A stretch of DNA of 64,000 bases, taken from a virus. The first letter of the stretch is position 1. Each line of letters starts with the position of its first letter. Position numbers and translations under genes: made by a program. This document shows positions 5,736 to 47,100 of the stretch, piece after piece. Where the stretch lies: positions 32,001 through 96,000 of IMG/VR virus record IMGVR_UViG_3300045988_063132; one strand, 5' to 3'. Under the pieces are notes generated by a model. It was not told where the DNA came from and searched no databases. It saw nothing but the letters and a program-made list of their open reading frames with translations.

Positions 5736-6081
5736 CAGTTTGCAACTTCATTATTTCTTCAGTGGCTGTACTTGCATGTGAATGTAGGTGCAGTCGTCCT
5801 TACTGTGAGAATCAGTGATAAACTTGTGGGGCTCATGTCTTATCAAAAGGGTGGCCAACTTTTAGATAGCATTAGTGCGGACGTTAAAATCAAGTAGATG
5901 ATAAGAATTGTACTGACAATACAATTCTGCTGTATCTTAAAACAAGTTTTGATAGTCAAATTTTCCTAAACCAATCCTCGTTATTAGGTAAAATTTCTTT
6001 TTGTTTACGTATTGCTACAACAATATCCTCACTGTTCATTCGTTATTTGCATTGTAGTTGTAGATACAATGCCGTCATCAA

Positions 6082-6671: not shown

Positions 6672-6854
6672 CATCAAATATTTTTATTATATGGTGGTTA
6701 TCCCCAAGAAAGTGTAAAAGTCCAGAGTCCTAAGACAAATCAAAGCTATATGAAGATATATAGTACGTCGATAAAGTAGTTGGGATATTGTCGAAATAAG
6801 TTAAATGAATAAGACAAACACTTTCTTTTTATTCGCATCTTAAAACAATCAAAT

Positions 6855-8084: not shown

Positions 8085-8410
8085 GAACCTGTGCCGACAA
8101 GTACTGTAAAGCTTATCAATTAATATTAGTGTCTTTACATTTGTAGAGACACTAATACTAGTTAGTGCCGAAAGTTATTAAACCGAATGGATTTAGTAGG
8201 TAATTAAGTTGAATTGACAACTTCCCTCAAGTGCTATATGCCGTAGGGTGGAAAAACAACGTGCCACTGATCATGTGCCGAAGATCATTACTATTGTTTT
8301 AGCTATTGTACTTTATGTCCTGCATAAAAACAATAGGCTCTACTTGTAGAGTTTTATAGTAATGGTTATCAAAACACATATAGAAATTGTGCTTTATGCC
8401 GAAGTTTTAT
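8085..8410. promoter_or_regulatory. intergenic cluster of five or six dispersed direct repeats (G/A)TGCCGAAG plus two palindromes
   Basis: GTGCCGACAAG ~8089, GTGCCGAAAG ~8166, ATGCCGTAGG ~8239, GTGCCACTGA ~8262, GTGCCGAAGATC ~8276, ATGCCGAAGTT ~8397. Hairpin TTAGTGTCTTTAC..GTAGAGACACTAA at 8128-8158. Perfect palindrome CTCTACTTGTAGAG at ~8338-8351. Confidence 0.35.
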
Positions 8411-8856: not shown

Positions 8857-9098
8857 GTTCATATTATTAAAATTATTAAAAGTAGATATTCACAATATAA
8901 GAACTGTATTGTGTCTTATTAGGCTTATTAATCATTGTTAGGACGAGGGTTCGATTAAAATGGTCGAGTTTAAATTGGGTGAATTCAGGGAACGCTAAAC
9001 AAAAATGCTCAGAAATGACATTTTTGCATGCCAATCCTGAGCTAAGCATGTAGTACACTACATGAAAGTGCAGAGACTACTGGAGAACTAAAGTGTTC

Positions 9099-9608
9099 TT
9101 AATTACCAGCTAGAGCGCCCAACCCTTCATTGGAAGGTGAAGAGATAGTCCAAGATTCACGAAACTTTTTAAGTTTCTCCTCAGAAATGAGGTTCCTATG
9201 AACCATTCTATGGCAATTAGGACATAAAGTTATTAAGTTTGTAATTTCATTTTTACCACCGTTAGATACAGGTATAATATGATGAACATCACAAGAAGTT
9301 TTATTCCAACCGCATATTGCACAAGGTTGTAATAATAGAAAATTGTAAAACGATCTAGTAATAGTATTATTAGATTTCATTCTTTTACGATAATCTTTTA
9401 ATTTACAAGCATTTGTACAATACTTTGCTTTAGAAGATTGTGCTTCAAATTCCTGTTCACATACAATACATTTACATTTATATTTCTTTCTATGTAAATT
9501 TCTGTATTTAGCAGCACATGAAAGTGAACAAAATTTTGCATTTCCTCTGTTTACCTCTCGTAAATCAGCTTGGAATTCATTATTACAATATAAACATTCT
9601 TTTTTCAT
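9099..9608 (-). CDS. HNH homing-type endonuclease (169 aa) with N-terminal CxxC zinc-ribbon pairs
   Basis: HNH motif CDVHHIIPVSNGGKNEITNLITLCPNCH; two CxxC...CxxC pairs in the N-terminal half; free-standing on the opposite strand within the plus-strand block. Confidence 0.85.
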   Translation of the reverse strand: MKKECLYCNNEFQADLREVNRGNAKFCSLSCAAKYRNLHRKKYKCKCIVCEQEFEAQSSKAKYCTNACKLKDYRKRMKSNNTITRSFYNFLLLQPCAICGWNKTSCDVHHIIPVSNGGKNEITNLITLCPNCHRMVHRNLISEEKLKKFRESWTISSPSNEGLGALAGN

Positions 9609-9901: not shown

Positions 9902-9971
9902 TACTCTTTAGTTCAACAGGTTAGAATCGTAATTTTATTACAGAATGTGGGTTCGAGTCCCACAAGAGTAA
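9902..9971 (+). tRNA. tRNA-like gene with canonical T-arm but non-canonical or truncated anticodon arm (possible pseudo-tRNA)
   Basis: 7-bp acceptor TACTCTT/AAGAGTA, D-arm GTTC..GAAT, T-arm GTGGG-TTCGAGT-CCCAC. Only ~18 nt remain for the anticodon arm plus variable loop. Confidence 0.45.
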
Positions 9972-10007
9972 CAATTAACTTATGTTTAATTTCTTAAAAG
10001 TAATCAG

Positions 10008-18709: not shown

Positions 18710-18828
18710 GGTCTCCGTAAGTTATTTTTAAAGTTCAGCATCTCTATTTATAACTGTGAACTATTCTAATAGCATAAAGTAACATTAAAATAACGAGTGG
18801 CAAGTGGGGTTCGAATCCCCGGAGACCA
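18710..18828 (+). ncRNA. atypical ~119-nt tRNA-like element (7-bp terminal stem plus canonical T-arm)
   Basis: GGTCTCC (18710-18716) pairs with GGAGACC (18821-18827), flanking T-arm TGGGG-TTCGAAT-CCCC(G). About 119 nt between them, too long for a standard tRNA. Confidence 0.35.
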
Positions 18829-18872
18829 ACAAGTCTCGAAATATTAATATTAACATTTTAAAAAGTAAAGTC

Positions 18873-20216
18873 ATGAAAAAAGATATCAAATCTCAAACAA
18901 TTGACAATTCTACCAAAAAATATCCGGTAGAAAGTAAAACATGGAAGTCTGATGTATGTCAGGCTTTGAAATTAGGTTATAAAGTAGAAGCTTTAAATGA
19001 AGAGCAAGCCGAATATATTAAGAAGATTGAAACTAAGCTTGCAGAAAAGGCTGCAAAAGCCAAAGTAAAAGAAGAGATGAAACAAACTCTTCTGAAAAAG
19101 ATGTCAGATATAATGAAAGCTAAGAAAGCAGCAATTATATCTGCAGCCAATGATCTAGCTGATAGAATTATTCTTCGTGCCATTGAGAAAGAAGAGCAGA
19201 AGAAGAAATTCGATGAAACCGACAAGAAAATTAAGGAGAAAGTCAAGAAGGATAAAATGGCAATAGCTGAAAAGAAACGTAAACGTAAAGCAGAATTACG
19301 TAATAAAACTATTCCTAGTCCTGAAGCTATAGCTAATGCTAAGAAACAACAAGATTTTCTTGCAAAAGCTCATGCCGCTAAACGTGAAGAGATTGAAGCT
19401 CGTCTCGATGAGAAAGAAAATTTCATGAATCAATCTGCAGAAGAATGGAGTAAAAAACATGAAGAACGTATTAAACGTAATACGGAACTTGCTCTCAAAC
19501 GATTGCATCACAAAGAGATTAAGCTCAAACGTACTACAAAAGCTGAAAGAATTGAAGCAATTAAAGCTAAGAAAGAAGCTGGTAAAGCAGCTTTCAATGC
19601 TGAAATGAAACGTCAAGCTTCAGAAATTGCAGCAGACCGTCAAGGTTATGCTAATCGCGTAGAGAAACGTAGACGTACTGAAACAGAACGTCTTGCAATG
19701 ATTGCAGAGCGTAGAAAACTACGTAAAGATAAGATTTTTACAGAACATCTTAAACAACAAAAGATTCAGCAATTGAATCTTAAACGTTTTATAGAGTCTG
19801 AAAAAGCTCGTCTAGCACGAAAAGAAGAAAAACGTGCCAAGTATCTTACTACGGGTGGAATAAAAGTTCCCAAAGTAAAGAACAATGTTGCTATAGATAA
19901 AACTAGAGCAGAAGAATATATTAAAGTTGCTGAAACAAAAATGAAAGATGAAAAAGAACGTTATATAATACGTATTGCATCAATTGCTTCATCAGAAATT
20001 GTAAGTGATTCTGTTTGTGCATTCATTTGTAAACCAGAAGAACTTAATAAACGTATGAAAGAAGTTCATAACAAACATATGAAAGAAGAACCCGATACAT
20101 ATGTAGGTATTTATGCTTACTCTGGCATCGGTAAAGATCAGAAATGTGTAAGTGAGATGCTAAACGATAAGTTTAAGGATCGTAGTAGACTTAATCCGAA
20201 AAATGAAGCAGCATAA
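18873..20216 (+). CDS. K/E-rich coiled-coil protein (about 447 aa)
   Basis: Start moved to ATG 18873 because the track start at 18804 overlaps the tRNA-like element. Highly charged repetitive KEE/AKK heptad-like sequence. Confidence 0.55.
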   Translation: MKKDIKSQTIDNSTKKYPVESKTWKSDVCQALKLGYKVEALNEEQAEYIKKIETKLAEKAAKAKVKEEMKQTLLKKMSDIMKAKKAAIISAANDLADRIILRAIEKEEQKKKFDETDKKIKEKVKKDKMAIAEKKRKRKAELRNKTIPSPEAIANAKKQQDFLAKAHAAKREEIEARLDEKENFMNQSAEEWSKKHEERIKRNTELALKRLHHKEIKLKRTTKAERIEAIKAKKEAGKAAFNAEMKRQASEIAADRQGYANRVEKRRRTETERLAMIAERRKLRKDKIFTEHLKQQKIQQLNLKRFIESEKARLARKEEKRAKYLTTGGIKVPKVKNNVAIDKTRAEEYIKVAETKMKDEKERYIIRIASIASSEIVSDSVCAFICKPEELNKRMKEVHNKHMKEEPDTYVGIYAYSGIGKDQKCVSEMLNDKFKDRSRLNPKNEAA

Positions 20217-20250: not shown

Positions 20251-20322
20251 AGCGGGATGGCGCAAAGGTAGCGCGTAGCTTTCACGAGGCTGAGGTTGGT
20301 AGTTCGAATCTATCTCCCGCAA
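20251..20322 (+). tRNA. tRNA; anticodon loop TTCACGA suggests anticodon CAC (Val), to be verified
   Basis: Acceptor (A)GCGGGA/TCCCGC(A), D-arm GCGC-AAAGGTA-GCGC, anticodon stem TAGCT/GGCTG, T-arm GGTAG-TTCGAAT-CTATC. Confidence 0.75.
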
Positions 20323-20340
20323 CTAATTAACCGTAGTACT

Positions 20341-22251
20341 ATGAAAATTAAAGGAAAGACTTGCGTAGTCTTTGATATTGAAGTTTTAAAGAACGTATTT
20401 ACTTGTACTTGTAAGAATACTGAAACAAAACAGATTACAGTATTTGAAATATCTCCAAGAAGAGTAGATATACAAGGATTAGTTACATTCTTTTATGAAG
20501 ATTATTATTTTGTAGGTTATAATAATATACATTATGATAATCCTATACTAAACTATATTATAATGCTATATAATAAACATTATTTTAATAGTTATAGTAC
20601 TAGAGAATTAACTGAATCAATATTTAGAATGAGTCAATTAGTAATTGATAAAAATTCTGATTTTGATTTATGGAAAGAGTATAAATACGCTAGAAACTTC
20701 TTATCAATAGATCTATTAACAATGTTATATTCTAAAGCTTTACGAGTATCTTTAAAAGAGATGCAAGTAACAATGCAATATAAGAATGTAGAAGAATTCG
20801 TAGTAGATTGGCATCAAGATCTTCCTGAAAAGGATATAGATAGATTAATATCATATAATATAAATGATGTAGAATCTACTGAAGAATTACTATATAGATG
20901 CGAAAGTGATCTAAATCTAAGAGTAGCTATTGAAGAAGAATATAAGATAAATTGTCTAAGTTTAGATGGTGTAAATACTGGTATGAAGATTCTTGAACAA
21001 GAATATATTAAACATACTGGTATTTCTAAAGAAAAATTAGAACAATTAAGGAGTCCTTGTGATCAAATAGATCTAGAGAAAGTAATATTTCCCTGGATTG
21101 AATTTGATAGTCCTATATTACAGAATCTATTAAAAGAAATGAAACAACTACATAATGTATCACCAGGAAGAAAAGGATATGAAAATACCTTTATTTTTGG
21201 AGATATGAAAGTAACTGTAGGTGTTGGTGGTATTCATGGAGATCGTGGTATAGAAATTATTAAACCACGAGAAGACGAATTATTATTAGATTCTGACGTT
21301 AGTTCTCTATATCCTAGTATGATTATAGAACATAATTTATATCCACCACATTTAGGTAAAGAATTCTTAGAGACTTACTCTAGTATTCGTACAAGAAGAT
21401 TGAACGCTAAGAAGAATAAGAATAAAGTAGTAGATAAAACACTTAAATTATCATTAAATGGTTTAAGTGGTAACTTACAGAATGAACATTCTTGGTGTTA
21501 TAGCCCATTTACTGTAATGCAAATTAGAATTAATGGACAATTACTACTTTTAAAGCTCTCTGAGAGACTTTTATCCATTGGATGTAAGTTACATCAGATT
21601 AATACTGATGGTGTCTTATATACGTGTAAAAAGACTAAATATGAAGAACTACAAAAGATATTAAAAGAATGGGAAGACTTAACTAAATTAAAATTAGAAA
21701 CGGAAGAGTTTACTCAATTCTATCAATTAGCTATTAACGATTACTTTGGATTATCTCCAGAAGGACACATTAAAGAAAAAGGATATTTCCTTACAGAAAT
21801 TACTTTAGGAAAAGGTTTATCTCCAAAGATAATTCCAGAAGCTATTATTAATTATTTTATACATAATATTCCAGTAGAAGATACTATTAAATTTTGTAAA
21901 GATATACGTAAATTCTTACAAGCTGAAAAGACAGGAAAACAATGGACAGTTGAATATAATGAACAAATTCAACAAAGAACCAATCGTTTTTACGTTAGTA
22001 ATAGTGGATACTATTTATGGAAATGGAAATTAGATGATACTGGTAAGAAGTCTTATCAAATAATGTTAAAAGATCATGGAGTAAGATTACATAATAAATT
22101 TTATTCTGATGAAGATCTTCAATGGAAATACTCTCAAGGAGAGACATTCCAAAGTATTTATGATATAGATTATCAGTATTATATTAATCAATGTATAAAA
22201 GTAATTGAAAAACTAAAACCAAAGCAGTTAAATCTGTTTAATTTTGACTAA
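20341..22251 (+). CDS. family B DNA polymerase with N-terminal 3'-5' exonuclease (about 636 aa)
   Basis: Exo I FDIEV, Exo II YNNIHYDNPIL, Exo III YNINDV. Pol motif A DSDVSSLYPSMI, motif B KLSLNGLSGNL, motif C-like INTDGVLY. Start moved to ATG 20341 (MKIKGK), downstream of the tRNA. Confidence 0.8.
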   Translation: MKIKGKTCVVFDIEVLKNVFTCTCKNTETKQITVFEISPRRVDIQGLVTFFYEDYYFVGYNNIHYDNPILNYIIMLYNKHYFNSYSTRELTESIFRMSQLVIDKNSDFDLWKEYKYARNFLSIDLLTMLYSKALRVSLKEMQVTMQYKNVEEFVVDWHQDLPEKDIDRLISYNINDVESTEELLYRCESDLNLRVAIEEEYKINCLSLDGVNTGMKILEQEYIKHTGISKEKLEQLRSPCDQIDLEKVIFPWIEFDSPILQNLLKEMKQLHNVSPGRKGYENTFIFGDMKVTVGVGGIHGDRGIEIIKPREDELLLDSDVSSLYPSMIIEHNLYPPHLGKEFLETYSSIRTRRLNAKKNKNKVVDKTLKLSLNGLSGNLQNEHSWCYSPFTVMQIRINGQLLLLKLSERLLSIGCKLHQINTDGVLYTCKKTKYEELQKILKEWEDLTKLKLETEEFTQFYQLAINDYFGLSPEGHIKEKGYFLTEITLGKGLSPKIIPEAIINYFIHNIPVEDTIKFCKDIRKFLQAEKTGKQWTVEYNEQIQQRTNRFYVSNSGYYLWKWKLDDTGKKSYQIMLKDHGVRLHNKFYSDEDLQWKYSQGETFQSIYDIDYQYYINQCIKVIEKLKPKQLNLFNFD

Positions 22252-24424: not shown

Positions 24425-24742
24425 ATGATAGTATTACCTACAGAAAAAGTAAAAGCAAAAGTAAATAATCCTAGATTTTTGATTATTTACGGTCGACCTA
24501 AAACTGGTAAAACTAGTTGTGTAGCAGCTCTAGAGAATAATTTAATTATTGATCTAGAAGGTGGCTCTGAATTCTTAGATGCATTAGCAGTACAAGCAAG
24601 AACTGTTAATGATTTCGCTGAAATTGCAAATGCAATCAGAGAAAAGATCAAAGAAACAGGCAAAAAGCCCTATAAGTATATTACTATAGATAATGCTACA
24701 CGACTAGAAGAAATATGTCTATCTTACGCAGGTACGCTCTAA
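24425..24742 (+). CDS. Sak4/AAA_24-like RecA-fold ATPase, exon 1 (Walker A); gene interrupted by a group I intron
   Basis: Walker A IIYGRPKTGKTS and Walker B-like YITIDNATRLEE; the ORF stops right at the start of the intron-like structured RNA. Confidence 0.5.
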   Translation: MIVLPTEKVKAKVNNPRFLIIYGRPKTGKTSCVAALENNLIIDLEGGSEFLDALAVQARTVNDFAEIANAIREKIKETGKKPYKYITIDNATRLEEICLSYAGTL

Positions 24743-25622
24743 ATTTATGGAGCGCTATTTAGTAATGAATAGTGTAAAAGCTTTCTAATTTCTGGAACAT
24801 TTTACCTTTAAGTACGTTAAAGATACATTTAAAGTAAAAGGTAAAACAATCAGAAGCGAAGCAATGAAAGAAAAAACATTAAATAAATATATTGGTAAAA
24901 CTCATGGTGTATTAACTGTTATAGATTTAGACCATGAAACTTATGATAAAGAAAAACAAAGAAAACGAACTTATTTTAAATGCAAATGTAATAAATGTGG
25001 TAATATAACTATAGTAAGATCAGATAAATTAACTACTAAATATTGGATACCAAAGTGTTGTAATAATTGTGTCAATCAACAACAACACGAAACGGCAATA
25101 AAATTACATGAAAACGGTATTCCTAGTTATTTTAAAAAAAGAATTAGTTCTATTAAAGGAAATGCAAAAAGTAGAAATATAAATATGCAATTAACTAATA
25201 ATGAAATTTATAACATTATTCAAAAACCATGTTTCTATTGTAAAGAAAAAGAAGCATATGGAATAGATAGAATTGATTCTACAAAAGATTATACTATAGA
25301 TAATTGTGTACCTTGTTGTTTTATTTGCAATCGTATAAAAAATAAATATTCAATAGGTGTTTTTCTAGATAAAATAAGTAAAATATATAATAATTTTTTC
25401 ATTGAACGTTCAACGACTATCCCGAAAGGGAGTACATTACAAGCTAATGGTAATGGAAACGGAAGCATTCCTACTATTAATTAATAGGGAATATGATATA
25501 GTCTAATCTATATGGTGACATATAGCAGTTCATAAGAGAACGTATACAAATTTGCGAATTGTATAGAATATAATGATAAAGCTCAACCTCAAGGAAAATC
25601 TTGGCAAGGTACTGATGTTAGA
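24738..25622 (+). mobile_element. putative group I self-splicing intron carrying an EndoVII/HNH-type homing endonuclease ORF
   Basis: Core elements: P-like TAATTTCTGGAACA (24787-24800), Q-like AATCAGAAGC (24848-24857, complementary to P), R GTTCAACGACTATCC (25408-25422), S ATGATATAGTCT (25493-25504). R and S can pair as P7 (GACTAT/ATAGTC). Exon 2 frame is open upstream of its TTG pseudo-start back to 25536. Exact splice sites not determined. Confidence 0.55.
24864..25484 (+). CDS. His-Me finger (T4 EndoVII-like/HNH) homing endonuclease (206 aa)
   Basis: CKCNKCG zinc ribbon and GIDRIDSTKDYTIDNCVPCCFICNRIKN, matching the EndoVII-family pattern GxDHxx..N..CxxCN..K. The C-terminal coding sequence overlaps the intron R element. 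Confidence 0.75.
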   Translation: MKEKTLNKYIGKTHGVLTVIDLDHETYDKEKQRKRTYFKCKCNKCGNITIVRSDKLTTKYWIPKCCNNCVNQQQHETAIKLHENGIPSYFKKRISSIKGNAKSRNINMQLTNNEIYNIIQKPCFYCKEKEAYGIDRIDSTKDYTIDNCVPCCFICNRIKNKYSIGVFLDKISKIYNNFFIERSTTIPKGSTLQANGNGNGSIPTIN

Positions 25623-26003
25623 TTGCTTCCACAAGGAGCAGGATATCAATATATTAGACTTGCTGTAAGAAAAGTTATCGATATGTTTAAAGAACTTACT
25701 GATAACTTAATTCTTATTGGTCATACTAAGGATAAAATGATTAATAAGAATGGTGAGGATATGACAGAAATGTCCTTAGATCTTGTAGGTAAACTAGGAG
25801 ATATTATATGTGGAGAAGCTGATGCAGTAGGTTTTATGTATCGAAAAGGTAATGAAACAATTATTAATTTCGATAGTAAAGATGAAACTACAAAAGGAGC
25901 AAGAGCACCACATTTGCGTGAGCAAAAAATAGTAATTGCAGAAAGCAATGAAAACAATGAATTAGTATTTCATTGGGACAGAATTTATTTACCAGAAGTT
26001 TAA
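25623..26003 (+). CDS. Sak4/AAA_24-like ATPase, exon 2 (C-terminal part; no ATG, the track used TTG)
   Basis: No in-frame ATG at the start; the frame stays open upstream to 25536. Motif LILIGHTKDK typical of RecA-fold sensor regions. Confidence 0.45.
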   Translation: MLPQGAGYQYIRLAVRKVIDMFKELTDNLILIGHTKDKMINKNGEDMTEMSLDLVGKLGDIICGEADAVGFMYRKGNETIINFDSKDETTKGARAPHLREQKIVIAESNENNELVFHWDRIYLPEV

Positions 26004-37548: not shown

Positions 37549-40290
37549 TTAACTTTTAATACAATGATTCATTTCATCAGTTGGAAATTCTTTAGAATCG
37601 TTAAACTCATTATTTGATTGATTCTTCGATTCTTCTTCTGGTTTCCTATGTTCTTCATTATCTTCAGTTACTTCAGTAGCTTCAACGTTTGTAACATCAA
37701 ACGGATTGTCAATAGGAACAAACATTTCATTTTGTAAGAATTTAGGTTCAAATTCAATAGAAAGATCTGTAGCATCTATCCTCTGATTACCATCAATAAA
37801 AGAAGTAGTAGTACCTTCATTAATGGTAAAACCTCTTTCCTTGAAGTTGATGGAATTGGTTGCAGCATATACAGGATAATAATCTGTTTCATTTTGAAGT
37901 CTACCAACAAGTTTGAAAAGAGTATTGTTATACTGTAAATAAGGAACTGGTAAACCTGTAGTGGTATTATAGTCTCCTTGTTCTGTAGTAATGTACACTG
38001 TTTGACCTTCATGTAATTGCTGTCTGTTTGGTGTAGCAGATTGTACTATATCTTCTACGCCTTGTAAAGCTCTAAATGCATAATCCACATATTTATTAAA
38101 ATCTAAAGAGTTATCGTTAGAACGTTTTAACAAGTCTTTCAGATGTTGATTGTAAGTATAATCTACACCATCCACAGTATAAGATAAATTACCCAGTACT
38201 TCAAAAGGTACTAAATCTAAAGTAGCATAAATACCTGTACCTCTACCACCACTAGTATAGAAGGAGTATATAATTAAATCTTTTGCAATATTTCTAACTT
38301 CTTCTGAACTATGTTCTAATAGATCTCTCCAAGCATAAGTGTATGCGTTCTTTGCATCTGTATCTCTTAATTTCAATACTGTTTCAAATTTTTTAGGTTT
38401 ACCTTCTACATTTATGCCAGGTATAAGCATCTTCAGTAACATGTTGTCGCTTAATTCTAGATACCTAGTACCAGTTAATATTTGATTTCTAAGTCTATCT
38501 ACTCTGTCTACAATAGTGTTATTACCATAGAACATGTCTTTCAAATTTATATTGTTTTGCTTACAGTATTCATTAAAAAATTCCGCCTGCATCGCAAACT
38601 TCATTTCTGACATATACTTGGTTATATTGTTTGATTTTCTATCATAATAAGTATTCGATAATTCACCAAACTTATTGACCATTTTTAAGAAACCTGGACT
38701 GAACTCTATCATTTCATTCTTAAGTAAGTCGAATAATAGACCTGTACTATTGTTTAGTTTTCTGCCTAAGAATGTTTTATTATACACATCTTCAGCATTA
38801 GTAAAATGAGGATCATCCATCATCCTTTCAATGTTATGTAAAGACAGTATCAATTCAGCTTGATTTTTACCCATTTTACCGGTATCCACCTGAGAAGCCA
38901 ACACCATGTTACTTAATGCCTTACTATAGTTCTGAATATCTGTAAAATATTCATATATAATCACTTGATTTCTATACCAATCTGTAGAGAAGTTTTTATT
39001 ATAATGATCTCTCAATTGTTCTTTTAACCATTCAGCATTAAATACTAAATCTTTTACATTGTAAGTATTACCATTCCATTCTATAGTAAGAGTTCCATCA
39101 TCTAAACGACTGTAGAAATTCTTTTTATCAAGCTTGGCTGCTTTTTCGTATTTGTTTAATATAGAATCCTTCCATCGTTTATCATTTCGCTCTTTCTTAG
39201 TAAGACCCATCTTTGATGAACCTCTTCTAATGGACTCATTTGCAATCTCTTTCAATACCGGTTGAGGTAAAAAGTAAAATTGATTCAAACCAACACCAGA
39301 GGAAGTTAATAAAGCTACTACATCATAAGTATACGAGTTTACATTTAAACGAGTAATATAAGAGTCTTTTGCAGCATCTACGTGGGCATTGATCAATGCA
39401 GAAGTCCAATCCATGATGGAGATACCATTAGCATCAAATTTATCATACAAATTACCTATATTTGGTATAATACTAAAAAGATTTCTCTTTGTATTGACCT
39501 TGCCTCTTCTTCTAGATATTTCTATAGTTTTATCAAGATCCAATTTTGCGATTTGCATAATTACACGGAAGGTATTAATCAAAGCCATAGGTCCAATACC
39601 AGCGTCTGCACCAACGTTTTGTGTTTTAACGTTTTCTTGATATAAAGGGAATAATGGTTCAAGATTGTTATAATTCTTATTGATATTAGAATAAGAATCA
39701 ACCACTTTTACAGCTTCTTTTAATGCGTCTGTAGCAAAGTCCAAAGGTACTGTTGCATCCATATAATGATTTGAAGAAGTTAAAGTCGTTTGGAATACTT
39801 CTAGCAATCTATTTTCAATCTGTCTGTGATCATTTAATTGCCATTTATTTTTACCAGAATTCTCTTGCACAAATTCTTCAAAAGTCATTTTTCTATCTTC
39901 GAACTTGAAAGATGATGCTAATTTAAGAATCTTTTTATTAGGAGCTAATTCTGGATCTCTTAAAATTTGATTAAACTTTCTTTGACCTATAAAGATTGAA
40001 TATTTATTTTTCATACTCTTGAGTATATTAATAGAATCTTCAGTTAATTCTCCATTTCTATTAATATCCACCAGTACAGATTGTAATATTTTAGGTATTT
40101 CTACTTTTGCTTGTTTGTAGAAATCTGTATTAAACCAACGATATCTATGATCGTATACTTTTTTCAAGTATTCTTCTTCGTTCAAATAAATCGGATTACC
40201 TAATTCATCTAATCCTACATAATCATCAATGAATTCTGTCTTATATAATTTACCACCTATTACATCATAATTATATCTAGCTAGATACAT
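37549..40290 (-). CDS. giant virion-type protein, 3' exon (913 aa as annotated; continuous with 41200..51543 after intron removal)
   Basis: Separated from the upstream 3447-aa ORF only by a group I intron plus homing endonuclease gene; the upstream frame is open for 9 codons before the ATG. Confidence 0.65.
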   Translation of the reverse strand: MYLARYNYDVIGGKLYKTEFIDDYVGLDELGNPIYLNEEEYLKKVYDHRYRWFNTDFYKQAKVEIPKILQSVLVDINRNGELTEDSINILKSMKNKYSIFIGQRKFNQILRDPELAPNKKILKLASSFKFEDRKMTFEEFVQENSGKNKWQLNDHRQIENRLLEVFQTTLTSSNHYMDATVPLDFATDALKEAVKVVDSYSNINKNYNNLEPLFPLYQENVKTQNVGADAGIGPMALINTFRVIMQIAKLDLDKTIEISRRRGKVNTKRNLFSIIPNIGNLYDKFDANGISIMDWTSALINAHVDAAKDSYITRLNVNSYTYDVVALLTSSGVGLNQFYFLPQPVLKEIANESIRRGSSKMGLTKKERNDKRWKDSILNKYEKAAKLDKKNFYSRLDDGTLTIEWNGNTYNVKDLVFNAEWLKEQLRDHYNKNFSTDWYRNQVIIYEYFTDIQNYSKALSNMVLASQVDTGKMGKNQAELILSLHNIERMMDDPHFTNAEDVYNKTFLGRKLNNSTGLLFDLLKNEMIEFSPGFLKMVNKFGELSNTYYDRKSNNITKYMSEMKFAMQAEFFNEYCKQNNINLKDMFYGNNTIVDRVDRLRNQILTGTRYLELSDNMLLKMLIPGINVEGKPKKFETVLKLRDTDAKNAYTYAWRDLLEHSSEEVRNIAKDLIIYSFYTSGGRGTGIYATLDLVPFEVLGNLSYTVDGVDYTYNQHLKDLLKRSNDNSLDFNKYVDYAFRALQGVEDIVQSATPNRQQLHEGQTVYITTEQGDYNTTTGLPVPYLQYNNTLFKLVGRLQNETDYYPVYAATNSINFKERGFTINEGTTTSFIDGNQRIDATDLSIEFEPKFLQNEMFVPIDNPFDVTNVEATEVTEDNEEHRKPEEESKNQSNNEFNDSKEFPTDEMNHCIKS

Positions 40291-41199
40291 TTTATCAACC
40301 GCTACTACCTTATATCTCTATAAGGGCTAGACTATATCTTCACCTTACGGTGCTCCCCATTTCGCCTTTCGGCTACACAGCGTGTGTACGCTGACTCAAA
40401 TCATATTGAATTTTATGAATCATTGAAGGAACCTGTTCAACAAATGGTTTTACAATGTTTATAAACTTTATTCCTTCTTTTGTTCCACAGCATAAAGAAT
40501 AACTGTTTTCTTTTTTGCCTTCGTGAAACATATAAAAATCAATATTCCAAACTTCTTTAAAGTAATCTATTATTATTTGTAATTCTTCTTTTGGCATACA
40601 AGTTGCAATTTTTATATAGAAACCATGAACTTTACCATTAGTTGTTCTATAATTTATATGTCCATCATCCATATACCAAATTGCAATTCCTTTAGCATCA
40701 AGTCTATTTAACAATTTTCTATTACCTATTTTTTTATAAGGTTTGTAAAAAACTCTTCTTAAGACCTTTACAAAAGGTATAATATTTAATTGTGTGTAAT
40801 AAACTGTTTTACCAGTATTATAACCTTTAACACTGACGTATTCTTTTAAACCGTTGTTTCGTAAACCTGCTTCTTTAAGTTGTTCTATTTTCCACTCAAG
40901 ATAATCGCGTTGTTCTTCACAATGACTTAATTTAAATACGTTGTTATTACTTATTGTTCCATCACCAAGTAAAAGAGCTATTAATAAATTTCTAGATTCT
41001 TTAGTTATTTTTGTTTTCATATTTGCTATCCATTTAGGAAGCTTCAGTTGAGTATTAGTCGTTGAACCTTCCGATTAGTTATATAGATAACGATCGGCTT
41101 GGCTGCTGGTTGCCCAATCCTTTGGGTTTTTACTACGCTTAGTACCTTAGGCTCTAAGGGGTTTCCAGCAATTAAAGGAGTTTTACTTCAACTATGTTG
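40291..41199 (-). mobile_element. group I self-splicing intron with embedded LAGLIDADG homing endonuclease gene
   Basis: Minus-sense core elements: P UUAAUUGCUGGAAACCCC (plus 41158-41175), Q ACCAGCAGCCAAGCCG (41094-41109), R GGUUCAACGACUAAUAC (41053-41069), S AAGAUAUAGUCUAGCCC (40324-40340). These match the Tetrahymena-type consensus (AAUUGCGGGAAA, CGCAGCCAAGUCC, GUUCACAGACUAAA, AAGAUAUAGUC). GC-rich structured RNA lies between two halves of one giant gene. Confidence 0.7.
40373..41020 (-). CDS. LAGLIDADG homing endonuclease, double-motif (215 aa)
   Basis: LLIALLLGDGTIS and GIAIWYMDDGHIN motifs. Confidence 0.9.
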   Translation of the reverse strand: MKTKITKESRNLLIALLLGDGTISNNNVFKLSHCEEQRDYLEWKIEQLKEAGLRNNGLKEYVSVKGYNTGKTVYYTQLNIIPFVKVLRRVFYKPYKKIGNRKLLNRLDAKGIAIWYMDDGHINYRTTNGKVHGFYIKIATCMPKEELQIIIDYFKEVWNIDFYMFHEGKKENSYSLCCGTKEGIKFINIVKPFVEQVPSMIHKIQYDLSQRTHAV

Positions 41200-44100
41200 T
41201 TAATCGAAGTCCGCACCGGTTAACTTAGTTAATTCGGCAGGTAATACGATAGTATCCCCAACATTCGATGGCAATACGTCTACTATAGTAATAGGTAATG
41301 TAGAGTTCATACCCTGAGTAGGAATACGATAAGACAGAACTGCTAAATCCTGATTATCTAAGATGAATTTTTTAGCCTCTTCAAAGTAAGAAGTGTTATT
41401 CTTTTTTGCTTGTTCTAATAAATAATCTTTTGGCAGTACATCTTTGAATAGATTTATAGATACAATTGCTTGTAATCTATTATTTTCATCCTTAAATCGA
41501 AGTTCTTTATTGAATTTATATTCATATTTGCTAGCGTCTACTTCAGCAAAAGAATCTTTGTAAGCAAAGTTAGACATCTGAATCATGGAACCACCAGGAG
41601 TATTTATATCTATGGTTTCTTTCTTAATCATAGATATGATACGACTTTGAATCCAGGCTAATGCAGGTATACCAGATAATTCAATATAGTAATCTTTGTT
41701 ACCATCTTCATTTTCAATGGTTTTTAAAACATCAATAAGATTTGATGGTAAGTTACTATTTATGGCATCATCCTTTAACATTTGAACAAACTTGTCACGA
41801 TTAACGGTCATATAGGTTTTACCATTCTCTGTTATTTCGCTTATCCCAAACTGTTCATATATGTTATTTCTACCAATATCTGATAAAGCTGAAATAGCTC
41901 CTACGTAGTCATCAATTAATTGCTTACCAGAATATTTTACGCCTTCGTATTCATACACATCATTGTCTTCTACTCCAGCAACACCAATTTTAGCCATCTG
42001 AGTACCTAACGAGATTCTAGATACATGGTGAGGATCTGTTACCAACTGTTTACCTAAATACTTGAATGATTGTTCATATACAGGAATTTCTTGTAATTCT
42101 GTATTAGGTTTACCATCTACATAGAATGTACCTTTTTGTCTTAAACCTGATTTTACAGAAGTATCAAATTTAATCATGTCTACATCTTTATCATTCATTA
42201 AATCATATACTTTCTGTAAGTCTCTACCTTTTGCTACTCTTTTGAATACAGTAGCCAATGACATCTTATCGTAGATGGGTATCTGTAATCCATTAATGAA
42301 ATCATAACCAAAATGTATGTATTTCAATGGTTGCATTACTACAGAATAAGCATACAATTCATCTTCTAATGATAAAGGCTCATCTGATTCCATTAAATTA
42401 TAAGCTTCTTCTTTTTCTCCATTCCACTCACCATTCATGATGGCAAGTTTTCTAAACATCTTTGGGCTAATAAGTACCTGCGCATCTGTTTGGTCAGTTT
42501 CAAGATAACCATTTAAACGTTTATCAGCTTCTTTAACCACCTCTTCTTTCAATTGTTCATCAGTCATATCAGCAAATCTACCAACACGTCTTTCTCTGAA
42601 CATCTCAAACTGTTTCCAAAGTAAACCATGATTGTCATCAGTACCTACGTACTTCGACATCATTTCATTATACATTACTCTGGATTCTACAATGTTTGAA
42701 TTGAAAATAGCAGTTTTATACTTGTGCGTATCAAAGTCTAAGAATCCTTCTGGCCAATTTTCACGTAATACAGATTTTGTTGAAGTTAATGCAGAATAAC
42801 GTTTTACTCTATCATCCAACATTGCCTGATAGTCTTTACTACCTTTATAAAACGCAACATCCCCTGATACAAGTTTTTCAAATTCATACACAGCGATTGC
42901 TGAATTTATAGCATAATCTGCAATAGCTTCTGCTAAATCAATTTTTTCATTAACCTTTTGTTTTACAATAGATGCTGGTAAAAGTCTATTACTAAATATA
43001 AGATTTGTATTTATCCTTTTACTGTCGTTTTCTTTTATAAACTCATCATCCAGATACTTTTCGTTACCGTTTATCAATTTCTGATTAATAAACTGTTTTA
43101 TAGTGTTGTTAACTTGTTGAATAAGACTCTCTTCAATTACTTTTCTAAGACCTTTACTATTAATATCAAAGAATTTATCATCTGATAATTTATTTTGTAA
43201 AGATGAGAAATATCTGAATTTGTAACCATTACCTGTTAAACGCATTGCACCACCTTTAACAATGTAATGGTAGTTTTCAACAAGTTCTTTATAATTCGTA
43301 TCTTTCTCTTTCATTAAAGAATCCTGTTCAACTTTTGACATCTTGTTCCAAGATTCTTCAGAAACACCAAGTCTATTTAAGAAGTTATTCTTAGCATTTA
43401 TTGCAGCTTGAATTGTAGAGTATTCATTGATAGCATAATTTACAAATAAATCAATAGTTTCTTTATTCAAAGAACCATTTTGAATAGTAACCTCTTGACG
43501 ATTCAAACCTGTTATAAAATAGAATGTACGTTTGTTTGCAAGAGTTGGTAAAGGTAAACGATTGTTTCTTACAGCATTGAATTTAAGTAATAAGTCTTCA
43601 TTTGGTGCTATATCCAAATACCCACGTCCTGTATCATAGCCATCTTTATCAATCATAGATAGCATTGTATCAACGTGAACATTAGATCTTACTTTGGGAT
43701 CAGTCATCTGTTGCAACCAAAATGAAGATTTATTATAAGTTACACCATTTATCTGAGTAAAGAAGCTATCGTCTTTTAACCATTCTTCAAACATAGAAGT
43801 AATGGTGTTATTTTCACTATACGCATAAACCAAGTTGCCATCTGGTCCTAACACACTATCATCTTCCGCTGTAGGATTTGCAGCAACATATGCTTTTGCC
43901 AATTCTGCTACCGATTTTTCTTTGCTTAGTAAATTTAAAGCATGACTAGTTACATCTTCTATTTTGTCGTTAACCAAATTGTAAAACAAACCTTGTTCTC
44001 CAAATAATTGGTCTAATCCTACAGGATCTTTAGAACCAACTCTAGGTACACCATTTATAAGATTTTTTAAAGCAACGTTTAGATTGCTATTAAAATAATG

Positions 44101-47100
44101 ATTATTTAATAAAACACCGATCGCATCACCATCTACAGCAATGTTCACATTGTTAAGTATGCGGACTAATTCTAGTACATTCTCGGCATAATCGTTTTTA
44201 AGGAAATTGTGCTTTTTAGATTTATTTTTTAACTCTTTATAATCTGCAATAGCTTGTTGTAAAACATTCTTATTTGCAAATGTACCATTTACACCGAATG
44301 TTGCTGACCAGTTCTGTTCAAGTCTATTAGAACGTTTATTAACATCAGCGTCACCATAAGTAATAGTATAAGAAGTTAGCTCTTTACCTTTATCATTGGT
44401 ATCCTTACCAAAGTAAGCGTTAATAAATCTATTTCTGTGTTTTTTAAACGTATTCCAGAATCTTGTTTTCAACATTTCATCCTCGTTACCACTTTCATCC
44501 TTAGTGGTAAGGATTTCATACAATTCTGAATACATATTTATCTTACTAGAATCTCCTTTGGCTTGTCTGATAGTACTGGTTTCATCTGCTTTTTTCTTCA
44601 ACAGCTCCAACATTTCATCTATAGACTTTGCATTGTGAATTGTACTAAAGGCATTAAACCAAGCTACATCGGGATTTATATATACAGGAAGGAATGTTTC
44701 TGGATCTAATGTTTCAGAATCTTTTAATGTTAAAAACATTACTCTAATATCCGCTTGCGCATTTTCTTTTGCTGAAAATTCATAAGCGGATCTTATTTCA
44801 TCATTAACTAAGTCATTTAGATCATCTTTTTCCTCTAGTTTAGATTCTACTCTACGTATATTAAATCCTTGCAACTTAACATCAATAAGAGGTCTAAACA
44901 CTGTATCAAAGTTATCAAGTATTTCATTATAAAGATCTACCTTTTCTTCGTAGATAGCTCTTTCTAATTCACCAAACGCTTCGTTTTGTGAGGCTGCTAA
45001 ATGCTTATCTCTGATGTCAATTAGTTGATCTTTTACTGCCTTAAAACTTAATCCTCTCTCTAAACTTTCTATATTCTGTATACCATTAACATCTATGGTC
45101 ATAGAAGTTAAAGTACTAACAATATTTCCAAGTAAAGAGCTATTGTAAATTTGATGCAATGTGACTCCATTAACAGTAAGAGGTGCATCCGCATTTGCAT
45201 ATCTTTGATTAAAATTAGTTAATGCCGCTTTGTTAATCTTAGCAAATTTATATTTACCGTTTTTAATAGCATTAAAAAATCCATCAATATTATCTATTTT
45301 GGTTTTGTTTAAACCTAAGAATGATTTAATAAAGTTTTTAATATCTGAAATAACTCTACCTAACTTACTGTGGGAATCGGGAGTATTATTGATAACATCT
45401 TCTCGGAAACGTTCAGCTAAAAATTCTTCCACTTCATTATCGTTACGATTAAATAGTGAATATTCTTTTCTAGCTAAATTGTACATTCTGGCTTGTTCTT
45501 CCGGACTCAACAATAATAATGATACTCTATGAAAAGCTTCATGATAAGCAGCACCAGCCGCTGGACGTTCAAACAAGGTTACACCATCCTCATTCATTAT
45601 TGACCATGCCCAACCAGGTCTACCAGATTCTCCAATTATACGAATTAATTGATCTACCAATTTAATATTACCACCAGCTCTTTTACCAAGCATTCTACGA
45701 TAATTTAATAATTCTTTTTCTAAATCAGAAGTTTGTTTAACATTATCATAAACCTGCATTGATACAGAAGGTTTCTTACCAAAAGTAGTAAACTTATTTT
45801 TTGGTTTTTTTCTAGTAAAACCAATCATTTCATCAGTAATACCGGCAGCTTTATTTAACTCTCTTGGATCTAATGGAGCGTTGGTAACAGGAGCTTCTTT
45901 TACTGGAGATTCTTTGATTTTTCTTTCTCTTAATTTAAGAGTACCTTTACGTATGTCATTATAAATTTCAAAATTAGGTATAGAATCTGAAATTTGATCA
46001 TTCATTCTAGATAAGAAATCAATCATCTCATCAGAATCCATTTGATCAAAATTGTTTCTATAGTCATTTACCAAATTTTGGTATTCGGCTGCGTCTTTTA
46101 CATACGCTCCTAATTTAAACGGAGATGTTTCCTTAGTAATCTCAACAAGAGGTTTTTCAGTATCCGTTGCTTTCTCATCTACTTTTTCTGGCACAGTTTT
46201 TACTGGAGAAATTTGTTGAGATGCTTCTACTGGAATTACTTTACCTAAATTTAAAAGTATTCTACTTACCGTATTCCCATCTGGGAAAGTATAATCCAAT
46301 AAATTTGATAACTCTTCTTTTGTTATATTCGCACTAGGTATTGCTTTACGTTTTGTCAACAATGATCTAACAGCACTATCATACATCAATTTGCTAGATA
46401 ATGTTGATAAATTATTTATAAGTCTATCATAAACCTCACGTAATTTTTTCACCTCTTCCGTTTGCTCAATGGAATCAAAAGGATTATTAGTAAGCAAACC
46501 AAAAGTATTTGTATTTTTTGGTTCAGGTTTAGCTGTTTCTTTTCTTTTAGACTCTGCAGAAGGTTTTACAGTTTTTGGTGGAGCAATTGTAGCCTTTTTA
46601 ATAGCTTCATAGTACTTGGGATTTTCAATTTGTTTATTTTGTTTGTTGACTGTAACAGTTTTTTGTGTATAAATCTTTAAACCTGTTTTATCAACAGTAA
46701 CCAATTTACCCTCATCTTTTACTTTTTCCTGAGCTTCTGGATGTTCACTTTCATATTTTATAAGATCATCTATACTCTTGTTATACACATCTACAAGGGC
46801 TTTTCTTATATTCTGTGAAAGTTCTTCTTCATTTAACCCTTCAATATTTAACAGTTCTTCTCCTTTTAAGGAAACCAATTTAGTTCCTTGTTTTACTAAA
46901 GCTGCTTTATTTGCATACTTTTGAGCACCCGGAATTTTTGCAGTTATAGTACTACCGTCTGGTAAATTGTTTATCTTTTCAGATAAATTTTCTACACTTT
47001 TAAATACGATTTCCTCTTTTTCAAAGACTTCAGAAGTTTTCTCTTCCTTCGGAGAAGGAACACTATCTGTAGTAATAACTCTCTCGGTTATAGGAATGTT

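Follow-up and report, generated by a model that had tools for sequence, protein, structure and literature searches.

The subject of this report is a split gene in a 64,000-nucleotide stretch of viral DNA (positions 32,001 to 96,000 of IMG/VR record IMGVR_UViG_3300045988_063132; the whole stretch is referred to below as the window). Between positions 24,425 and 26,003 the plus strand carries three open reading frames (ORFs): one of 105 codons, which has a Walker A motif and ends abruptly, one of 206 codons with the HNH/His-Me finger signature GIDRID...CCFICNRIKN, and one of 126 codons, which lacks an ATG. A first-pass annotation had described these ORFs and had taken the outer two for the halves of a Sak4/AAA_24-like recombination ATPase gene, with a group I intron and its homing endonuclease gene lying between them. 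The ORFs are all present as described (Table 1), and the analysis presented here indicates that an AAA_24 ATPase gene is very probably interrupted at this place by a group I intron in which a homing endonuclease of HNH type is encoded. Judged by its sequence, the window comes from a crAss-like phage of the family Suoliviridae: over the 1.8 kb around the split gene it shares 98% identity with Culoivirus cr1_1 and cr55_1 (Crassvirales, Suoliviridae). The Delta group of crAss-like phages corresponds to the Suoliviridae, and cr1_1 belongs there.

The outer ORFs match consecutive parts of one protein family. The 105-aa ORF aligns with positions 5–84 of the 195 positions of Pfam AAA_24 (E 6.3e-15) and the 126-aa ORF, or exon 2, with positions 80–192 (E 1.1e-11), and both halves match PHROG 124, 'Sak4-like ssDNA annealing protein' (E 5e-20 for the 105-aa ORF), which agrees with the family assignment made in the first-pass annotation. 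A query of 1801 nt from the window matches 966 nt in cr1_1 and cr55_1, a difference of 835 nt, and the junction alignment with the intronless cr1_1 places the insertion point between CTCT and ATAAAG. The insert so defined (24741..25575, 835 nt) has a G+C content of 25%. Joining position 24740 to 25576 produces an in-frame gene of 744 nt for a protein of 247 aa, identical to the uninterrupted cr1_1 gene at 732 of 744 nt and at 245 of 247 aa. The spliced protein gives a single continuous match to AAA_24 (PF13479) across the junction (residues 19–212 to profile positions 5–191 of 195, E 2.5e-29, 102.9 bits vs. a cut-off of 27) and contains both Walker A (GRPKTGKT) and Walker B (ITID); the insertion lies 14 codons past Walker B, within a Tyr codon. 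Against TIGR01618 (phage_P_loop) the spliced protein scores 42 bits, the cut-off being 138.75, and is placed outside that equivalog. By these comparisons 24425..26003 reads, far beyond chance, as one AAA_24/Sak4-like ATPase gene split by the insert. The sequence expected at the spliced junction is ...GCAGGTAC[G/T]CTCT followed directly by ATAAAGCTCAACC..., and the unspliced boundaries are CTCTAAATTTATGG and AATATAATGATAAAG.

Table 1. Features of the split ATPase gene and its insert, and split-gene regions in related phages. Element coordinates for all helices were computed by script; positions refer to the window except in the last three rows.
Feature	Position	Strand	Description
105-aa ORF	24425..24742	+	Walker A GRPKTGKTS; stop codon TAA 24740-24742
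Exon 1 of AAA_24/Sak4-like ATPase gene	24425..24740	+	codons 1-105 and first base of Tyr106; Walker A GRPKTGKTS, Walker B ITID
Predicted group I intron	24741..25575	+	835-nt exact indel relative to cr1_1/cr55_1; ends in omega-G 25575
P1	24735-24740 with 24749-24754	+	exon strand CGCUCU with guide GGAGCG; 6/6 complementary; U24740.G24749 at splice site
P10	24744-24748 with first five bases of exon 2	+	UUUAU with AUAAA; 5/5 complementary
Internal guide region and P2	24744..24772	+	
P2 hairpin	24755-24760 with 24767-24772	+	CUAUUU with GAAUAG; covaries
5' core	24780..24857	+	P3 5' strand, J3/4 UAA, P4, P5, P4', first P6 pair
P3	24780-85 with 25461-66	+	GCUUUC with GGAAGC; 6/6 paired
P4	24790-95 with 24850-55	+	UUCUGG with UCAGAA
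P5	24800-09 with 24837-46	+	UUUUACCUUU with AAAGGUAAAA
First P6 pair	24856-57	+	GC
P6	24862..24872 with 25394..25404	+	5' strand CAAUGAAAGAA with 3' strand UUUUUUCAUUG; 11/11 complementary, across the ORF
Putative homing endonuclease ORF, 206 aa	24864..25484	+	in P6 loop; GIDRID...CCFICNRIKN
3' core	25408..25575	+	J6/7 to omega-G
P7	25413-19 with 25499-504	+	A[C]GACUA (after J6/7) with UAGUCU
P7.1	25420-31	+	UCCC-GAAA-GGGA
P7.2	25435-55	+	
P8	25467-92	+	holds ORF stop codon 25482-84
J8/7	25493-98	+	AUGAUA
P9	25508-25	+	GUGA loop
P9.1	25528-41	+	
P9.2	25543-65	+	followed by GAAUAUAAUG, ending in omega-G 25575
Exon 2 of ATPase gene	25576..26003	+	starts with AU completing Tyr106; codons 107-247 and stop
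126-aa ORF	25623..26003	+	TTG start, no ATG; frame open upstream to 25536
Split ATPase gene region, cr50_1 (NC_055868)	L002 1618..3369		
Split DNA polymerase gene region, cr53_1	L003 624..3436		
Split DNA polymerase gene region, cr118_1	L004 1115..3402		

The ends of the insert are set independently by the intronless cr1_1 allele. The indel could be shifted by one base, and only the register chosen satisfies both splice-site rules, namely a U at the end of the exon paired with a G in P1 and an omega-G as the last base; the guide pairs with both exons. All helices from P1 to P10 are present and fully complementary in the window, and the G-site pair of P7 (the conserved G-C, G25415/C25503), the omega-G and the core helices are all intact. 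The four core strings reported in the first-pass annotation, P-like (TAATTTCTGGAACA, 24786-24799), Q-like (AATCAGAAGC, 24848-24857), R (GTTCAACGACTATCC, 25408-25422) and S (ATGATATAGTCT, 25493-25504), lie at these positions, and their pairing holds as well, P with Q forming P4 and R with S forming P7. A side observation concerns G24736, a synonymous substitution (ACT to ACG) four nucleotides upstream of the 5' splice site that raises P1 from 4 to 6 contiguous pairs. It is seen only in the window genome and is absent from six other intron-containing relatives; co-adaptation of exon and intron through this strengthening of P1 was considered and dropped, because a change private to one genome is an anecdote.

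The ribozyme structure was examined in relatives of the insert. A blastn search with the 3' core matched 736 phage records, including crAss-like phages, Lak megaphages and phages of Escherichia, Staphylococcus and Bacillus, and a pattern scan of IMG/VR supplied 120 loci. Two covariance models were built, R1 for the 3' half (20 seeds) and R2 for the 5' half (15 seeds). On the window intron these td-like half-models score 174.6 and 77.7 bits, values obtained by construction because the window is among the seeds. In the R1 alignment of 128 introns, 95.7% of the cells are paired, vs. 66.4% after column shuffling and 32–49% after sliding the partner strand, and 37 of 40 pairs are changed on both sides (30.9 +/- 1.3 in shuffled alignments); P7.1 and P7.2 both covary and are 98.6 and 95.8% paired, respectively. 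In the R2 alignment of 88 introns the corresponding value is 89.9%, vs. 60.6% shuffled. Within it P2 (92.8% paired) has two-sided changes in all six of its pairs and P4 (99.4% paired) in five of six, and P5 covaries in its outer pairs and is 75.6% paired over the whole helix. The P4 result bears out the earlier proposal that co-variation between P and Q reflects a real RNA structure.

Two helices were assessed by permutation. P3, which is left unpaired in both models, forms on average 5.81 of 6 pairs in the 88 introns (6/6 in the window), compared with 3.53 +/- 0.10 for permuted partners (maximum 3.89 in 2000 permutations), and does so with 70 distinct strand combinations. For P6, the comparison used ORF-bearing introns and took 16 nt on either side of the gap, downstream of the 5' half and upstream of the 3' half; across the ORFs of 46 such relatives the longest helix averages 7.65 pairs vs. 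4.81 +/- 0.18 when permuted, and reaches 11 in the window. The gap between the core halves measures either ~16–25 nt or ~450–900 nt, as expected from optional ORFs within the P6 loop. An energy-only fold of the intron with a tetraloop in place of the ORF recovered P2, P3, P4, P5, P6, P7.1, P7.2, P8, P9, and P9.1 in full (z = -4.5) and missed P7, because this helix forms a pseudoknot with P3. Together, the sequence comparisons identify the insert as a probable group I intron with a covariation-supported P3–P8 core that includes the P3/P7 pseudoknot.

Subgroup IA2 of the Michel–Westhof scheme is marked by two extra hairpins, P7.1 and P7.2, that lie between P7 and P3', and the phage T4 members of the td/nrdB-like family are textbook self-splicing introns. 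In td the I-TevI ORF ends at the start of P7. Model R1 matches the T4 nrdB intron with 116.2 bits and the td intron with 110.3 bits, which gives independent support to the covariance-model match, and R2 matches the nrdB intron with 58.4 bits. On the basis of these matches and of the covarying P7.1 and P7.2, the window intron is placed in the td/nrdB-like family of subgroup IA. The core architecture is the same as in the T4 introns, including the extra elements P7.1, P7.2, P9.1, and P9.2, and so are the strings AACGACUAUCC...GGAGUA and GAUAUAGUCU, the GNRA-type loop of P9 and the AUAAUG-like ending. The endonuclease ORF is likewise looped out of P6, and the host is likewise a phage gene of DNA metabolism, the genes for thymidylate synthase and ribonucleotide reductase in T4 and the AAA_24 ATPase gene in the window. 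The two systems differ in phage order (the window phage belonging to the Crassvirales, with Bacteroidota as hosts according to the literature), in the nuclease (PacI-type HNH in the window, GIY-YIG for I-TevI and canonical HNH for I-TevIII in T4) and in the extent of the ORF, which in the window continues through P7–P8 of the core, unlike that of td.

Other phage introns resemble the window intron in general plan. Group I introns encoding the HNH enzymes I-HmuI (SPO1), I-BasI (Bastille), and I-TwoI (Twort) lie in DNA polymerase genes of Bacillus and Staphylococcus phages and, as they are described, likewise combine a phage replication gene, a group I intron and an HNH-family nuclease. These enzymes have the canonical catalytic His and nick DNA, a difference from the nuclease of the window. 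For the T4 introns themselves, the T4 record gives td and nrdB as group 1A introns that carry I-TevI and I-TevIII.

The intron ORF encodes a protein with the motif CxYC...GIDRID...Y...N..CC..CN..K. Among the PHROGs it matches phrog_1035 'endonuclease VII' (E 1.4e-14) and phrog_3118 'HNH endonuclease' (E 1e-10). A phmmer search of PDB sequences gave PacI (3ldy, E 5e-4) as the only significant match, residues 130–166 aligning with PacI 87–123 (eayGIDRIDStkdYtidNcvpCCFICNRIKn vs. qclGVDRSDSfegYspqNarlaCFICNRIKs), so that D135-R136 and Y143 are aligned with the D-R and the Y of PacI. An AlphaFold (AF2) model built on 33 homologues has a mean pLDDT of 83.6 and shows the beta-beta-alpha-metal fold of HNH nucleases, with strands at 133–136 and 148–151 followed by a helix at 153–161; in Foldseek its best match is again PacI (E 2.8e-4), followed by an HNH nicking enzyme (Gme HNH nuclease). 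The N-terminal part, rich in beta structure and with cysteine pairs, is read as a zinc-ribbon-like module. Twelve residues are invariant in the 33 homologues, which extend to ~30% identity: C123, Y125, C126, G133, D135, R136, Y143, N147, C152, C155, N156, and K159. Tyr143 stands seven residues after Arg136, and in PacI the function of the absent His is performed by a loop Tyr (PMC5714182, PMC3384342).

The nuclease is a PacI-type HNH/His-Me finger protein, closer to PacI than to T4 endonuclease VII; of the earlier label 'EndoVII/HNH-type', the second half stands in the form of an HNH variant and the first does not, endonuclease VII proper being a different type. PacI, a 142-aa restriction enzyme that acts as a homodimer on an 8-bp target and is placed in group 20 of the His-Me fingers (Jablonska et al., 2017; PMC5714182), shares with the intron protein the motif G-[VI]-D-R-x-D-x4-Y-x3-N-x4-C-[FC]-x-C-N-R-I-K (PDB 3LDY/3M7K), the Arg at the place of the catalytic His, the loop Tyr and the CxxC pairs for zinc. 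Unlike PacI, the intron protein has a different N-terminal DNA-binding part and is encoded in an intron, and with only 19% identity over the structural alignment (TM 0.33–0.46) it has to be regarded as a distant relative. PacI-like HNH genes of lactococcal phages have recently been classed as putative free-standing homing endonucleases (PMC12724721), so this type of nuclease is not new in phages. The family is very large: 61,123 representatives of 50%-identity clusters match its profile at E <= 1e-3, and 11,540 still do so at E <= 1e-30. In many members the match to the profile consists of 2–7 stretches, which suggests a repeated N-terminal DNA-binding module. No Pfam domain is on record for the query or for any of the 92 nuclease homologues of the first search round.

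The nuclease ORF and the ribozyme overlap at both ends. The AUG (24864-24866) lies inside the 5' strand of P6, and the last ~30 codons (25394-25484) coincide with P6', J6/7, P7, P7.1, P7.2, and P3', the stop codon falling in the loop of P8. The peptide ...STTIPKGSTLQANGNGNG... encoded there is the most conserved part of nucleases that are otherwise 30–60% identical, although the tail of the protein (residues 181–206, pLDDT < 50) is predicted to be disordered. Compared as DNA, the 3' cores of the window intron and of the cr53_1 intron are 80% identical, and blastn gives no match there for the rest of the ORF. Since a conserved yet apparently disordered tail coincides with conserved core DNA, we conclude from alignment and structure model that conservation of the C-terminal peptide is probably imposed by the RNA. 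With the AUG in P6 and the ORF running through the core, translation and ribozyme folding on one RNA molecule should exclude each other: ribosomes moving along the ORF would open up the core structure, and the start codon would be inaccessible in a folded P6.

Alleles with and without the intron occur side by side. Counted over the listed members of the relevant 90% clusters, more than 1100 contigs have the intact 247-aa protein, ~375 have the 105-aa fragment of exon 1 and 85 have a 158-aa fragment produced by insertion at a second site. The intronless alleles of cr1_1 and cr55_1 are 98% identical to the window region, and the same intron, with a full-length nuclease of 96% identity and in an identical context, is present on many contigs of 95–100 kb from different studies. 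More distant phages carry a 60%-identical nuclease at the same insertion site. In cr50_1 a related intron (3' core 83–85% identical) occupies another site of the same ATPase gene, between GHTKD and K, and carries a different nuclease of 264 aa from the same family. Close relatives of the intron also occur in cr53_1 and cr118_1, there within the DNA polymerase gene; in cr118_1 the intron ORF is reduced to its two ends, leaving a 48-aa remnant. In RefSeq the exon pieces of the cr50_1 ATPase and of the cr53_1 and cr118_1 DNA polymerases are listed as separate coding sequences (CDS) with no intron feature. Compared in this way, the pattern of presence and absence looks like the usual life cycle of a homing intron (invasion, fixation, decay of the ORF and movement to new sites), and the polymorphism, together with the related introns at other sites and in other genes, may be taken as indirect support for homing.

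The exact insertion, the covarying ribozyme, the kinship with td and nrdB, the fold and motif of the nuclease and the natural presence/absence polymorphism directly support the view that the locus is an AAA_24 ATPase gene into which a group I intron encoding an HNH-type homing endonuclease has been inserted. The steps proposed for its splicing follow established group I chemistry. In the folded pre-mRNA, CGCUCU at the end of the exon would pair with the guide GGAGCG to form P1, which has U.G at the splice site. The conserved G-C pair of P7 would bind a free guanosine, and this would attack after U24740. The omega-G at 25575 would then occupy the G site while P10 (AUAAA/UUUAU) holds exon 2, and ligation of the exons would give an mRNA encoding the 247-aa ATPase. 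During mixed infections the nuclease may cut or nick an intronless allele near the junction of GGTACTCTCT and ATAAAGCTC, and recombinational repair of the cut allele would copy the intron in (homing). We infer that splicing and homing are active at present, that cleavage takes place near this site and that translation and splicing compete for the transcript.

Several observations weigh against this view. Splicing is read from the DNA, and nuclease activity and a catalytic role for Tyr143 are assigned by analogy with PacI. The canonical catalytic His is absent from the nuclease, Arg136 taking its position (Arg in 33 of 33 aligned homologues), and searches of Pfam (E <= 0.1) and NCBIfam gave the 206-aa ORF no match to a nuclease or HNH family; its sole match there, DNMK (E 0.0085), was set aside as weak and irrelevant. 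The 6-bp P1 is particular to the window genome, most intron-bearing relatives having only four contiguous pairs. A co-conversion tract was sought around the junction and none was found: other intron-bearing genomes share the junction-adjacent exon bases with intronless cr1_1, and of the 12 exon differences between the window and cr1_1, 10 are in exon 1, with no clustering at the junction. The covariation alignments were fitted to their own models and are biased toward the structure; the permutation tests of P3 and P6 were added for this reason and, like the energy-only fold, are free of the bias. Finally, a default Rfam run over the whole window at the gathering threshold reported no intron. 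RF00028 (Intron_gpI), the model by which the first-pass annotation proposed to check the insert, does match it with 35.8 bits (E 2.9e-7 in a 1-kb search) but covers only 25390..25525, the P7–P9 part, and does not reach the gathering score of 50, so that the match would look marginal on its own. The 620-nt ORF in P6 separates the core halves by a distance that this model cannot bridge, and the shortfall is therefore treated as a limit of the test and not as evidence against membership in group I. As the joined protein is homologous across the junction, both ORFs fall into one family and intron covariance models match the insert, the first-pass observation is confirmed and its interpretation supported.

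Among the alternatives, the one that best survives is a decaying relic, in which the nuclease, the ribozyme or both are inactive and the intron is only inherited vertically, or the ATPase gene has become a pseudogene. We consider it unlikely. The Arg in place of the catalytic His, the want of a Pfam or NCBIfam model and the missing co-conversion signature would suit a relic, as would the existence of ORF-less derivatives of related introns, e.g., in cr118_1, and the occurrence in diverged phages of a nuclease with 60% identity at this site, which fits a long vertical residence. Yet the Arg/Tyr arrangement is invariant throughout the family and resembles that of active PacI, the ORF is intact on dozens of contigs, with variants of 96% identity at full length, and the core helices, omega-G and the G-site pair of P7 have been retained. 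Moreover, outside the insert the host gene shares 99% identity with intact alleles, and a proportion of about one quarter of intron-containing alleles fits an element that is moving now or has moved recently.

A much less probable possibility is that no splicing takes place and that a free-standing homing endonuclease gene has entered the ATPase gene, the two polypeptides assembling as in T4-like split genes. Annotation practice would agree with it, since GenBank relatives such as cr50_1 have the pieces as separate CDS and gene callers on public assemblies give fragments of 105 and 106 aa as separate genes, and free-standing PacI-like HNH genes do occur in lactococcal phages (PMC12724721). Against it, the C-terminal piece has no ATG, and a start at TTG 25623 would cost 16 conserved residues; both ends of the insert are those of a group I intron, with a U ahead of the 5' splice site, a G ahead of the 3' splice site and the pairings P1 and P10; and ~215 nt of sequence outside the ORF form a covarying group I core shared with T4 td and nrdB, for which a free-standing gene would have no need. 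The most remote of the alternatives are another class of intervening element (intein or group II intron) and an artefact of assembly or a chimera: phages do contain inteins and group II introns, and for crAss-like phages inteins have been reported (PMC7886860, PMC12350094), but the stop codon at 24740-24742 and an insert out of frame with the exons exclude an intein, the region has no reverse transcriptase and no domain V/VI match and yields only Intron_gpI in Rfam, and the same arrangement on many independent assemblies from different studies excludes an artefact.

The gene order around the locus is shared with cr1_1 and reads helicase (DnaB_C), a 174-aa ORF, the ATPase gene (split in the window), a 203-aa ORF and primase. 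The first-pass annotation had numbered the intron as the second of the window. That it is a group I intron stands; the count does not, as the window holds at least three. The 'intron 1' of that annotation (UUGCUGG...CCAGCAG, ~41222..40264) lies on the minus strand and is td-like as well, with 48 bits from the 5'-half model (41098..41222), 32 bits from the 3'-half model (40264..40428) and a P3 (CUCCUU/GGGGAG) paired 6/6. It contains a LAGLIDADG_2 ORF (40373..41020, PF03161, E 8.9e-22) and parts a 3447-aa ORF (41200..51543) from a 913-aa ORF (37549..40290). A further Intron_gpI candidate at 8927..9171 on the plus strand exceeds the gathering score (63 bits in Rfam) and is seen only with permissive filters; a canonical HNH ORF (PF01844, E 2e-13) at 9099..9608 on the opposite strand overlaps the 3' end of this match. 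Very dense arrangements occur elsewhere in IMG/VR, where 3–4 td-like introns with both halves lie within ~2 kb on single viral contigs (loci L021, L030, L109, and L017).

Other RNA elements of the window include tRNA-Lys (anticodon ttt, 9902..9972) and tRNA-Val (anticodon cac, 20251..20323), the latter flanked by long ORFs at 18804..20216 and 20296..22251, both without a Pfam match. The early phage region holds, within 3 kb, a Hatchet ribozyme (76.5 bits) and a RAGATH-22 RNA (125.6 bits), both above their gathering scores, and matches to RAGATH-9 (58.5 bits vs. 75.2) and RAGATH-20 (55.2 vs. 101.4) below them; the positions of the four are 5796..5895, 8094..8273, 6694..6828, and 8206..8286.

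Group I introns in an ATPase gene of Delta-group (Suoliviridae) crAss-like phages, termed 'ATP_43b', have been reported by Yutin et al. (2021; PMC7886860), who located them through endonuclease protein domains. The phenomenon and the gene are the same as in the window, whose region is 98% identical to the Delta-group phage cr1_1, and the intron class in the ATPase gene of Suoliviridae is thus published already and known in kind and place. The accessible part of that paper gives, for the ATPase intron, no description of its boundaries, of the td/nrdB-like structure, of the PacI-type nuclease or of the overlap between ORF and core. With the window, one more documented case joins what is known of the intron-rich Suoliviridae.

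The main value of the finding is one of annotation. Public records and the gene callers applied to metagenomes list the two ATPase halves and the intron ORF as three unrelated genes, and marking the intron restores a single protein of 247 aa. The gathering threshold of Rfam misses ORF-bearing phage group I introns; of those in the window, one appears only with permissive filters and two remain below the gathering score. The PacI-type nuclease and the overlap of its C-terminus with the ribozyme core are of minor interest to researchers on homing endonucleases. Taken jointly, these features allow a broader proposal, which we make tentatively and with slightly less than even confidence: a very large family of PacI-type homing enzymes without the catalytic His, for which Pfam and NCBIfam have no model and which may use a Tyr in catalysis, would drive the spread of td-like introns in gut phages; the last ~25–30 codons of the ORF would be strictly dual-coding, with the STTIPKGSTLQANGNGNG peptide a translated piece of ribozyme and not a functional segment; and each transcript would choose between splicing and synthesis of the nuclease. 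For the phages themselves, three alleles of the ATPase gene coexist in human-gut assemblies, one without an intron, one with an intron at the first site and one with an intron at the second, and this polymorphism could mark recombination and co-infection among crAss-like phages.

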